DNA of 64,000 bases from Lingula anatina. Lineage: Eukaryota; Animalia; Brachiopoda. The stretch lies in the NCBI GenBank assembly GCA_051362555.1, contig CM120641.1, positions 11,594,001 to 11,658,000 on the forward strand, written 5' to 3'. The notes beneath the pieces were generated by a model. The model saw only the letters and a list, made by a program, of their open reading frames with translations. It was not told the origin of the DNA and ran no database searches. The translations under genes and the position numbers were made by a program. How positions within the stretch are numbered: position 1 is the first letter of the stretch; each line of letters begins with the position of its first letter. This document shows, one piece after another, positions 37,901-43,900 of this stretch.

Positions 37901-40900
37901 GACTTTACAGACATGATCTTTAAATGACCAGAATTTTTAAACACAATAAGAACATTTTAAAGATAGGGTGCCAATTACCAAATGTTGATCAATTTACTTC
38001 TTAGGATATTTAAACTATCATAAAGCAGAAAGAAAGAGAAAAAGAAATCAATGAAAGTAACATTATTTTTCCATTATAGAGTTCCAAAGGGAGATTGGCC
38101 AAGAAAAGCAGCAATACTGCCAGAACTAAATGGAGATCAAACCATTTTTGCATATTTACCATACATAATAAAACAGTTAATGCTGTTGTACATATTTAAT
38201 ATGTACAATTTAAAGAAAAAAAATTTGAAACTAAATAAGTTTGTAACCAAATTATTCATCTGTCCACTTGTCAAAATAACCAATCAAAAATTGCCAGACA
38301 AAGTCCTTCCTTTCTCTCTCTCTCTCTCTCTCTCACACACACACACACACACACACACACACACACACACACACACACACACACACACACACACACACAC
38401 ACACACACACACACACACACACACACACACACACACACACAGAGTGTCTGTTTGTTCAATTGTCTGTTAGCAACATTATGGAAAAAGTTGTGGACAACTT
38501 TTGATGACATTTTCAGAAACTGTTGAGAATTGACCAATTAAGAATCAGATTTTGTTGTTGACCCATTAATCAATTAATATATGGTTAATTTTTAGTTAAT
38601 CATTTGTCTGTATATACTTGTCCCTTAGCAGCATGAGCATAAATAGTTTCTGTCAAAACCGCTTGTTGATTTCATATAGAGGCATATTGGAAGTTATTCT
38701 GAATATTTGCTTATAAAACAATCCCCATGGATAGCAATCATTATTCAAGTGAAATATTGGTGGGGTCAACAACAACCCAACAGCCAGATAAATAAATAAG
38801 ATTAATTCTGCAGATAAATAAAGATTAATTCTGCAGTGGGTATACTTACCAAGCCACCTAATATGGCAAATATCATGAATGTCCTTCCCAGAACAGTCTT
38901 GCAGGCCACGTCTCCATAGCCCACAGTGGACATAGTGACCAAGAGAAGATACACACATTCCCCATAGGTCAGGAACTGGGGGTTGTTAAAGTCAAAAAAG
39001 ATGTCTCCAGAATTTTCCAGCTACAGGAAACAAAAAGATTGTAAATCTATATCTATTTATATACATTCATAATTATCTTTATATTCATCTTCATGACAGC
39101 AGCAGATCCCTGCTTTCTGCCACAGTGGGGGGTGACAGCATAGTTTCAGGACTTGTATCAAGGCCCTTTTCACAAATACCAGTGTACATAACAGTTACCT
39201 TAGACCTCTTTCTCAAAGACACCATTGGTCTACATAGACCATCTATCTCTGTGGGGACTCTTACTGAGTCTAATCAGCCTTACTGAATGACATGCCTCCT
39301 CTTGTTTCCGAAGTACTCCCATATTCATCAACTTTTCTGTATTCAACTTAATGCCAGGAGGGGTGTTAATCTGTTAAACCTAAGATCTAATAAACGGTAT
39401 ATTAGATCTTAGGTTAAACTGATTTCCTGTAAAGTTGGATGGATCTATGTAGACTAATGGTGTCTATATGGGAATGGTGCCTAGTGATACAGTTGATAGT
39501 TATGGATACTTTGTGTGGTTCTATTATGTAATTATACTGCAGTGGTGTTACTCCTTTTTACAATTTCTCCACATACTTGCTTCCAGTTGTCTTGTTAATA
39601 AACTGTCCATGTCAAATACAAGGCTCAATATAAGTGACACCATTACATAAAAGGCTTTTAAGTTGTAAATCTAGTTTTCAAAGTATACTGTAAACTGCTT
39701 GATGTGAAAAGGGCCTTAGGATACATTAAAGCATATATCATTTCTAATAGATACAGAGTTCAAGAGTCCCTTATTTTAAAAGTTCAACAGCTGAACTCTA
39801 TTTTCCTTATCAAATGAAGATTTCTACCCAAAACAACTGCTTCTTTTGGCCTGCTGATTCAGAATGGTCAAAGTATCCATAAGAAAGTGACAATTATTTC
39901 TAGAAAAGGAGGCAATGTGTATAGACATAAGCCACTTCAGCATGCAGAAGCACTGTATTTGTACATAAAAATATGATTACACAAATATTGTGATTGAAAA
40001 TAGAAAATTTTTCAAACATGCCCAATTTAACCAACCTAGTCCTAACAACAGGCTTGCAAAATCTTCTGTGATTTACATGAAGTATTGCCCCAACTTTTTT
40101 TTTTATTTCATCACAAATTCAATTAATTTACAAAATGTCAATGTCAACTCAGATAGAAAAGCAAACGTTTCCAAACAAATCAAAAGAATTCAATCTGTCA
40201 AATTATATCCACCAATTTTGACAGATTATTCAAGAATAACTGCACATCTAGTAAATCAAGCTAAGTTTTTCGCAGAGCTACTGACACTGCCAAAAAGAAA
40301 TCAATGAAGAAATGTAGCAAGCAACACACCCACCTTCCAACATTACAGTGTATCCAATCATTATCTAATTGACATAAATTATTTACTGCAGTCCATTCAA
40401 AACAAAACCAGTAATAAAGTATAAGTGAATATGGTGCTTGTGTAGTAAAAGTAGAGGGCTGCCCCAATCCCATGCACCCATGTCCACAAATAGAAGTCAA
40501 AGATATATATAGTCCAAGAAGAGTCATTTCTTGAGAATACAAAATGCAAGCCAAGCTTCAGATTGATTTTTACAAATCTTATATCTCTGTTACAAGTCTC
40601 TATAGAACAGTTATCACTGCAACTAAAAAGTTTACTCAAAACTAAACCAAATAATACAAAATATATATATGTAATTAATCAAATCAAATTAAATAAAAAG
40701 AAAATGATATGGAAACATATTGTCAAACATTAAAGATGCAATGACAATTATGAAATGATTCTCACCAAGTGAATAAACCCTGCAGCAGACAACCAAAAAC
40801 TGGTGACAACTGACACCACTTGAGCCAAGCGGATACTATTACTGGTTTGTAAAATGCTGAGGTATTGCAAAATATCAGGTACATTCATCAGACGGACTGC

Positions 40901-43900
40901 TCTGAGAAAGCGAAGCCCTGAAACAACAGAAATAGTGACAATAAAATAAAATGTCTAAAACCGTGCTCATATGATCAAAGAACTGATGTACTGCACATAT
41001 GCTGCAACTGCTTGCTATCCAGAAAGAAAAAATGCACTGCAAGAAAATGAACATTCAATTCACAATGTCAAGACGCCATGCTACCCACATACATTGCCAC
41101 GTACATTACCTCTAAAATATTTACAGGAAAAGAAACAAAATGCTTTAATGTACAATACAACAGCTTCAAAGAAATTGTTGTTTAAAGAATACAAAAAGTC
41201 TTAATACAGCTATATTTGGTAAGTGTAAAGTGAGAAGAGGTTGAATAATAATAATAACAATAATAATAATACATAAAAATTATCCACAATACACAAAATG
41301 AAGCGGACTAATTTTGTATGATAGTCACTGCTGCATGAATAAATAATAGCAATATCTTTCAACTGATTCGACTGATTATTTTCAATGATTATTTTTCAGA
41401 AATATAGGTTGGGTGGTAATCAAAAGGCTTCAAACCCAAATGTGATATTTTATGTGTGCATGAATTTGCAGGAGCGTCTAAGGCTAGTTTGTTATAATCA
41501 TTCAGTTTTATACCAAAACATCATATAATTCTAGGTTGAAAATGTCATTTTACTGACATTTGTACTTTGAATATTATTCAAAGTATGAATTTTAAATACT
41601 AAAAACCAAACGTGTATCTGTAAATAACATGTAATTATTTTCCAATTTTTTAGGAAGATATATTTTTAAAGATTCAGCAAAGATGGATGGATCAGATGAG
41701 CAAAGATTATAACATCTCATACTTATGAAATACTGAAAGTAATTCTTTATGTTAAGGTAATTTTTTGTAAACAACAGGGCTCTTTCTCTTGAAATTAGAA
41801 GGATGAAGTATTTCCCATAAGTTTGACAACTTTAAACTTGCAATCCTTATGATATAAATACATATATGCATCACACTGATCTCTTTTAACATCCATCTAC
41901 CACTACATTTCCTGTTCTGCTTTCAAATAACATAGCACTTTTACAAAATGACTGAAAATTCCTACAAATTTAGATGATGTTAATTTTGTGTTCAGTTGGT
42001 TTATCTTTGTAACTGATCTCATATATGTTACAAAACTGTTTCTCAAGACCAAATGTATTCAAGGCACTAGATGGTATCTACTGCCAACATGGCACTCCAT
42101 AAATACCTCACATCCATATATATAAAGTTTGATTAAAATCTGTGTTGAATATATGAAAATAAACAGCCACAGCTGATGTGGAGTCATTCACGAGGAAGAA
42201 TAAAAAAATTCCTTCACCATTCAAAATGTCAAAAATTAAGCCTTGCAAATGAACAGCTGCATCTGTTAACATTTTGCCACTAGCTAATCAATAATGAAGA
42301 AACTCCTGATTGTGAAAGGGCCATCTTGAAAGCCAAAATGCTGATGAGCTTAAATACTATCAGTAATTTGCAATAAAGCAACTATGTCTCAAAATCTGCA
42401 TACGTTTCCTGGAAATATGCAAACATTTCAACCCAAATAAAACACCAATAACGCGTGAACAACCTGACGCCATTACCGCACCCCCACCCCTCACTGTTAG
42501 TACAGAGGGGTATAATAAAAATGATGGATTTGTTTCTGTCTGTATTCAAGATAACATTTTATGGTGGGTGTTTGGTAGGGTAAGAGTCAACATGCAAGTA
42601 AACAACACAGCCTGCTTATTAATAAATAATTAAGAATTATTAAGAAATGCTAAGAGGTGGTGACAAGAAGGATGGTGAGAGCACGAACACCATTAATGTT
42701 CTATGTGTAAGTTAACCAAATGTATGTAATGGATTAAAAGCTACTGTTAAGGGTATGTAGTGTAGACAACTTAGTGCTGATTTTCTTTGAAACCTGTCAC
42801 ATTGTACAGCATATCTCAAGATTACCACCATGCACTGTTAGGGCAACCACTACTCTACTATATCAAACCATACTAGATACGTATATAAAAATGCAGTGCA
42901 AAGCGTGCAGTTTACAGTGTTCAAGTCATCGTATGCCACTCAGCCAGCTCGGTGGTGTAGACAATTGGTTACAAAAGCCTGCAAAAAGGTAAGTATCAAT
43001 GGTAAATATAGTACAACCACTCTCAGCATAGCCCAGAGCCTAGTCTAAAAACCTGGAGGTCAGGACCAGCTAGGATCACTGCCTGAGTTCTAGTACCAGG
43101 TCTGTAGCAGTAGGCCTAGTATTTATTATTACCAGGTGGATCACACCAGCGGCAAAAAGCCAGTTTCCCAGGAACATTGTGGTCAGTTGAGACAGTCGTA
43201 AGCTGCGCCTGCTTTGGAGAATGCTGAGGTAAGTAAGGATTGTGGGAAGGTTCATGAGGCGCAATATACGCAGGCAATCCAAACCTGGAGGGAAAATGGA
43301 AAATGAAATTAAACTATATTGTTTGTCACAAAGATAAATAATTAAGATCAGAGGGAATATTTATTCAAAGAGATGTGTATGAAGCACCAGCTTTTTTGTT
43401 ACCTGTTTACTAGCTTTTCTCAGAGACGAAACAAATTCTTAAAATGATATAAAATTTCACAAAAAGTTAAATGTTTCAAATGCATTGTATAATTTTCATA
43501 CATTTCCTTTCTTTCTCTTCCCTTTTTTGGAAAGAAAAAACAAAACCACAGGACATCAATACTTTAAAATTTAGACAAGAAACATTATTTGGCAGTGTTC
43601 TGATAGCAGTAACCAGAACCTACATTAGACCAGAGCTATGCTGGCAACATATGTACATAGAGCAATGCAAGGGCAGGGCCCCATTGACCACAAGACTGGA
43701 CATATCTCTTCTAAAAACATGCTGAAAATCAAGACAAGATTGCCCAATCACGTGCATTAAACAAGGGATGTCATATAACACTTCTCATTCCCATTCTTTC
43801 ATGCACACACTGGAATTGTGGAATATAATCATTTAACATCATGCAGTCAAGAGTCAGCTGAAATACTGCCTAAGTTGTGCATTTTATATTTAGATGAAGT

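Follow-up and report, generated by a model that had tools for sequence, protein, structure and literature searches.

A duplicated S4-S5 exon in the Slo1 channel gene of Lingula anatina as a candidate switchable voltage sensor

The BK channel gene Slo1 (KCNMA1) of the brachiopod Lingula anatina was analysed in a window of 64,000 nucleotides (NCBI GenBank assembly GCA_051362555.1, contig CM120641.1, forward-strand positions 11,594,001 to 11,658,000; coordinates below are positions in this window). The exon encoding the S4 voltage-sensing segment, the S4-S5 linker and S5 is present there in two tandem copies on the minus strand, the canonical exon B at 40766..40917 and a duplicate, exon A, at 43133..43284. 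Exon A is absent from all four RefSeq isoforms, all of which use B, and is thus unannotated. The acceptor of exon A is joined to the upstream exon in mRNA and, judged by its codon pattern, exon A is an old exon under purifying selection at the protein level. Its product lacks the first S4 arginine, R207, and keeps R210 and R213. With moderate confidence, exon A is interpreted as a mutually exclusive exon that produces a low-threshold BK subunit.

Architecture of the gene and of the duplicated exon

The whole Slo1/KCNMA1 coding span, from S0 to the C-terminus, occupies 4754..63332 of the minus strand. S0 to S6, the K+ filter, the RCK domains and the calcium bowl, by which the gene is assigned to Slo1/BK, were found in one gene with the filter and the acidic bowl intact, and the colinear exons from 63332 to 4754 match the RefSeq Slo1 isoforms of Lingula. 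The initial annotation had looked to mollusc slo for comparison; the first exon, however, is 100% identical to RefSeq XP_013413785.1 (Lingula anatina isoform X2), which places the gene in a brachiopod.

Exons A and B lie between two constitutive exons of the same strand, an upstream exon at 44499..44610 (S2 end to S3, donor phase 1), which is spliced to A and to B, and a downstream exon at 38850..39020 (turret, pore helix, K+ filter and start of S6, acceptor phase 0). As had been described from the sequence, both copies are 152 nt long and have identical phase, AG acceptors, GT donors and an open frame without stops or indels. They share 28/50 residues and 82/150 nucleotides; the earlier count of 29/51 residues holds when the split Gly codon is included. 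Both match Slo1 structures at human residues 206-255 and Aplysia residues 195-244, with E-values down to 9e-17 for B and of 3e-10 for A, and this alignment bears out the numbering previously given to the substitutions in A (R207 to Asp, the acidic residue 219 to Thr, R210 and R213 kept, RR in the linker). When 28 exon peptides were searched back against the window, exon A was the only second copy (E 6e-14), so that duplication and not chance accounts for the likeness; the next-best match (E 2e-4) lies on the opposite strand and contains a stop. The same search returned no duplicates in the window of the later slo exons that are swapped in other animals.

The reading frame permits only one of the two exons, as the initial annotation had proposed. 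The upstream exon joined to A and the downstream exon is stop-free over 145 codons, and likewise with B; skipping of both leads to a stop at codon 46, and inclusion of both to a stop at codon 97, nine codons into B. One-of-two use is therefore likely enforced by the frame, both-or-neither products ending early and probably being removed by nonsense-mediated decay, and such frame-dependent decay would be the simplest account of the exclusivity. Steric clash as a mechanism was ruled out, as the intron between A and B (40918..43132, minus strand) is 2,215 nt long and both donors are ordinary GT sites. Splice sites were scored with a matrix built from 27 sites of this same gene. By this measure the donors are middling and much alike, with 5.1 bits for A and 5.3 bits for B in a gene range of 0.5-10.9, and the acceptors are good (10.1 bits for A, 8.4 bits for B).

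Of 57 inverted repeats, the 25 longest were inspected for docking or selector pairing elements flanking A and B; none was convincing, and the best arms sit in element-like repeats downstream of B. An excess of the Nova-type motif YCAY is similar on the two strands (108 and 97 occurrences) and was discarded as a signal. The motif TGCATG, named as the Rbfox motif (PMC13011093), is not enriched (6 occurrences against 3.6 expected, P=0.15). Two repeat structures were noted in the neighbouring introns. A 16-nt tandem repeat of 16.8 copies (44205-44473) begins 25 nt after the donor that is joined to either A or B. Nested inverted repeats occupy 39160-39717 in the intron after B (arms 39160-39188/39689-39717 and 39217-39238/39444-39465, hairpin 39368-39424); many partly matching RNA reads fall on them and they are probably a small mobile element. 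Elsewhere in the gene, cassette exons in the RCK1-RCK2 linker (23064-23099, 21615-21713, 20645-20737 and 16260-16361) separate the RefSeq isoforms X1-X4.

RNA reads and selection on exon A

RNA data were taken from four of nine Lingula runs (X1, X4, X7 and X8), 6-26% of each run was compared with 38700-44800, and a splice joint was reported only with at least three reads. The initial annotation had stated that a lack of spliced reads reaching exon A would speak against it; the joint between the upstream exon and A (44499-43284) was present with 6 reads, distributed as 0, 0, 3 and 3 over runs X1, X4, X7 and X8, with 3 starts in X7 and 2 in X8. The two junctions of exon B that had been named for comparison were also recovered, 44499-40917 with 18 reads (0, 3, 4 and 11 in the same order of runs) and 40766-39020 with 15 reads (1, 8, 3 and 3). 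Exon A thus takes 6/24 of the upstream-junction reads (95% confidence interval 12-45%), from two of the four runs, and the difference in its use across studies is not significant (Fisher P=0.55). The joint 44499-39020, which would contain neither exon, was not listed in the four runs at the three-read threshold.

Between A and B, 25 first, 11 second and 32 third codon positions differ, each out of 50, as do 8/9 four-fold sites. The proportion of synonymous differences (pS) is 0.78, i.e. saturated, that of nonsynonymous differences (pN) is 0.34, and pN/pS is 0.44 (bootstrap 0.30-0.64). The excess of third-position over second-position differences, together with the absence of stops and indels, argues that A is under purifying selection. 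In simulations with A neutral and B constrained, the stop-free codon pattern was matched in 0/1,500 runs at each of eight divergence times, and a separate neutral simulation gave the pattern in 0/20,000, whereas it was often reproduced with omega set to 0.1-0.2. Indels were omitted from the simulations over the eight divergence times, which favours the null.

Moreover, A was compared with 71 other segments, which were distinct, ungapped, full-length, had at least 24 identities to B and were mostly arthropod-like, gapped or partial matches having been dropped. A departs from the majority residue at 22 positions, and only 5 of these fall within the 21 columns that are conserved at 90% or more (P=0.015). 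Constraint in A extends to the final residues of the exon, G251, H254 and L255. The selection tests consist of the pairwise comparison of A with B and of column conservation in a set that holds no A orthologue, and a very recent loss of function of A may be compatible with the pairwise tests.

Predicted gating and rival explanations

Exon A retains R210, R213, P218, Y223, R234, L235, Q237, W246, G251 and H254. Position 207 is Asp in A (codon 43277-43279, minus strand) and Arg in 70/71 of the other segments; position 219 is Thr in A (codon 43241-43243, minus strand) and Asp in 69/71 and in B. Asp207 and Thr219 as well as C208, R230, G244, N245 and F248 of A occur in none of the 71 segments, and A carries RR at 230-231 in the S4-S5 linker. 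The S4 of A had been described as charge-reversed. This description had to be dropped, as a single residue is concerned, the net charge of 206-223 changes from +2 in B to +1 in A, and R207 is not a gating charge. The claim of a rewritten S5 stood in part: 11/21 positions differ between A and B, but at 238 and 242 it is A that has the majority residue and B that is the odd one. The gating-lever positions 222, 223, 233, 234 and 235 in A are T, Y, L, R and L, kept or conservatively changed, and T222 is the natural residue in the molluscs Aplysia and Mytilus.

The effects of R207, R213 and E219 mutants to which the initial annotation had appealed are in print (PMC2151507, PMC9231616, PMC12218146). 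For mouse Slo1, half-activation of the sensor is reported to fall from +173 mV to -105 mV in R207Q and to -120 mV in R207E, with the gating charge unchanged (PMC2151507). In human BK the gating charge resides on R210 and R213, and R207 pairs with D133 and D153 (PMC9231616). The corresponding Aplysia mutant R196Q is described with a conductance-voltage (G-V) shift from +173 to +6 mV, a charge-voltage (Q-V) shift of about -400 mV and an open structure in the absence of Ca2+ (PMC12218146). Since R207 sets the balance between resting and active state and not the gating charge, the sensor encoded by A is predicted to favour the active state while retaining its gating charge, rather than to be reversed. 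The sequence prerequisites for a pre-activated BK channel of the R207Q/E type, i.e. no R207 with R210 and R213 kept, are present in A, and the Lingula protein has the aspartates of S1, S2 and S3.

In the mechanism proposed here, A would be an old tandem duplicate of the Lingula Slo1 S4-S5 exon which is spliced to the upstream exon, presumably joins 39020 with its donor, and likely replaces B in a minority of full-length transcripts. As predicted from mutants of other BK channels, the salt bridges by which R207 and aspartates of S1/S2 stabilise the resting state would be lost with Asp207, and the gating charge would continue to reside on R210 and R213. At rest the voltage sensor is predicted to occupy its activated state, and the channel may open at potentials roughly 100-200 mV more negative and at lower Ca2+. 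Sensor-to-pore coupling would be retuned by Thr219, the arginines of the linker and the substitutions in S5, the direction not being predictable, and single mutants do not allow the combined effect of all 22 changes to be predicted. A more specific form of this proposal is put forward tentatively: with a natural R207D pre-activated sensor, the S4-S5 exon swap could toggle BK between a high-threshold channel and one that is open close to the resting potential in the absence of Ca2+, doing by splicing what gamma1 (LRRC26) does in mammals.

Several observations weigh against a functional low-threshold isoform. The joint between A and the downstream exon (43133-39020) was not listed in the four runs, with a detection chance of 42-70% if it were used proportionally. 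The initial claim that splicing could yield BK channels with a different sensor is supported in part, by the upstream joint (6 reads, 2/4 runs) and by purifying selection, but not by this joint. In a tree of 74 segments and 50 columns, in which A groups weakly (64/80) near mollusc-type sequences, A is the longest branch (1.02 against 0.24 for B). The S5 hydropathy of A is 1.18, at the bottom of the orthologue range of 1.17-2.08, and G244, N245 and F248 are among the residues not seen in the comparison set. Twenty-two changes made at once may offset the effect of losing R207 or prevent folding. Additionally, no A-type protein was found in a word-based search with A (17 unscored candidates) or among the best 150 of 202 HMMER matches, no A orthologue was confirmed among 595 pattern matches in metagenome contigs, and a second copy of the S4-S5 exon was present in 0/23 genomic loci with both flanking exons, taken from 61 metagenome loci. 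The HMMER library holds one protein per 50% cluster, so that an A orthologue may be masked by a cluster representative of B type.

The main rival to a mutually exclusive exon is that transcripts with exon A are truncating or down-regulating, the intron being retained or B being included as well, which would lead to decay or to a poreless S0-S5 fragment that is possibly dominant negative. This is considered unlikely. It agrees with the RNA in that only the 5′ junction of A was seen, and with the frame, which ends at codon 106, 18 codons past A, if the A-B intron is retained, and at codon 97 if B follows. The donor of A lacks the +5 G and is followed by AATAAA at +6..+11 (43122-43127); the latter is probably due to chance in AT-rich DNA, because cleavage there would precede the first intronic stop. 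Scattered reads occur within the A-B intron in runs X1 and X8, but in X8 each of the three introns contains such reads; in X7 the bin 42984-43187, 55 nt of which are exonic, holds 129 nt of reads and the next intron bin 0, the bins being coarse. Precedents are given by SCN8A 18N, a decay exon (PMC13011093), and by Trichuris suis slo-1.1, for which alternative exons of the S4-S6 region are described only in intron-retaining truncated variants (PMC4270693), a further point against a full-length isoform. A poison exon of the 18N type carries a stop inside the alternative exon, whereas A is open and would join 39020 stop-free. Its protein is constrained to the end of S5, which would be unneeded in a pure decay exon, its exact length and phase are kept, its donor score is like that of B, and the A-to-B joint (43133-40917) was not listed in the four runs with at least three reads, a result that is equally underpowered.

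It is rather improbable that the A isoform is full length but not left-shifted, its other changes compensating, uncoupling the sensor from the pore or making a silent modifier subunit that acts only in mixed tetramers. Such an outcome would be in line with mouse E219Q, in which intrinsic opening is lowered (L0 0.178 against 1.18; PMC2151507), with the unusual S5 residues of A, and with the S4/S5 gating lever formed by 222, 223 and 233-235, where changes at 222 and 233-235 are reported to suppress opening strongly (PMC9750137); at 222, 233 and 236 the residues of A and B are not the same. However, mutation of R207 has a strong effect that agrees between mouse, human and Aplysia, human E219Q moves the Q-V relation in the same direction (by -51 mV; PMC9231616), and T222 is natural in two molluscs. 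That A is a decaying duplicate whose acceptor use is splicing noise is very improbable: the long branch, the changes at two near-invariant charged sites and the lack of annotation or of counterparts in the protein and metagenome searches are set against saturated synonymous sites without stop or indel, two intact splice sites, a pattern never produced by neutral simulation and the use of A by a quarter of the junction reads.

Exon A in the context of other exon swaps

No other brachiopod was recognisable among the matches, and exon A had no match among phage sequences. With an insect Slo region as query, 120 arthropod matches were obtained. In Mytilus, the 15 isoforms listed of 66 cluster members share one S4-S5 segment, with no second copy. 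A counterpart is a gene model of the clade I nematode Romanomermis culicivorax (UniRef A0A915K4N5, slo-1), in which precisely this exon of 50 residues occurs twice in tandem (residues ~46-95 and ~112-161). Both copies keep R207 and D219, unlike A, and the pair possibly arose by an independent duplication. Strongly diverged S4-S5 segments in four proteins of other animals (P0046, P0129, P0145 and P0152) could be alternative exons or paralogues; P0129 lacks Arg at 213 and P0152 comes from the flatworm Protopolystoma. As a separate observation, the slo exon that follows (turret, pore helix, filter and start of S6) is found in two to three diverged copies, arranged in tandem, in four metagenome loci (L020:5267-5827, L054:3475-4729, L055:1546-2919 and L057:1303-2026). 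Each copy sits behind AG, one copy type has GFG in place of the GYG filter, the proteins resemble copepod-like matches, and the arrangement looks like a swappable pore exon.

The Lingula pair is known from one species so far, and its event class is well known in ion channels. The structure PDB 3naf, used as a reference below, represents the cytoplasmic gating ring. Swaps of tandemly duplicated exons are reported to be enriched in voltage-gated channels and independent in human, fly and worm slo (PMC9741552). Three events in Drosophila slo, C. elegans slo-1 and mouse exon 9/9alt represent the same gene family and the same kind of event as the Lingula pair, arisen repeatedly. The fly and worm swaps are mapped on PDB 3naf and, unlike A/B, none described there covers S4 (PMC9741552). 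The initial annotation had placed the known mutually exclusive slo exons (Drosophila A/C/E, vertebrate exon 9) at or after the end of S6, which fits mouse 9alt at the S6/cytoplasmic linker (PMC11758846) but not the Romanomermis pair or Trichuris suis and T. muris slo-1.1, invertebrate slo-1 genes in which, as in Lingula, alternative exons are described between S4 and S6, here as splice region 3 (PMC4270693). The T. suis alternative exon, reported only from truncated, intron-retaining transcripts, is possibly not the same exon as A (PMC4270693).

Sodium channels provide a further parallel. Exon pairs in the voltage-sensor domain are described for Nav domain I (5N/5A, also 6N/6A) and for SCN8A (18N/18A; PMC13011093). 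Like A and B, these are tandem mutually exclusive exons, which tune voltage dependence or, in the case of 18N, silence the channel through a premature stop. They belong to another channel family and differ by 1-7 residues near the S3-S4 linker, whereas the 22/50 residues at which A and B differ are spread over the whole of S4, linker and S5, the first arginine of S4 among them, and A has no internal stop. In the engineered channels R207Q and R207E (R196Q in Aplysia, PDB 9DI8/9DIC), the first S4 arginine is lost and the sensor is active at 0 mV; these are laboratory mutants, whereas the Lingula change is encoded in the genome in a switchable exon, with a predicted effect. In secretory cells, LRRC26 gamma1 is reported to render BK active under resting conditions of voltage and Ca2+ (PMC12933094), but as a separate subunit, and not by a switchable exon as in Lingula. 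Among the literature searched, most subscription journals lying outside its scope, no report of a Lingula or full-length S4-S5 slo exon pair was found.

R207 is the residue that biophysicists have mutated to hold the BK sensor active. If the interpretation favoured here is true, exon A would be a natural experiment on the joint tuning of sensor set-point and sensor-pore coupling, through positions 207 and 219, the linker and S5, and the control of BK channels by splicing would extend from the S6 linker and the tail into the voltage sensor.

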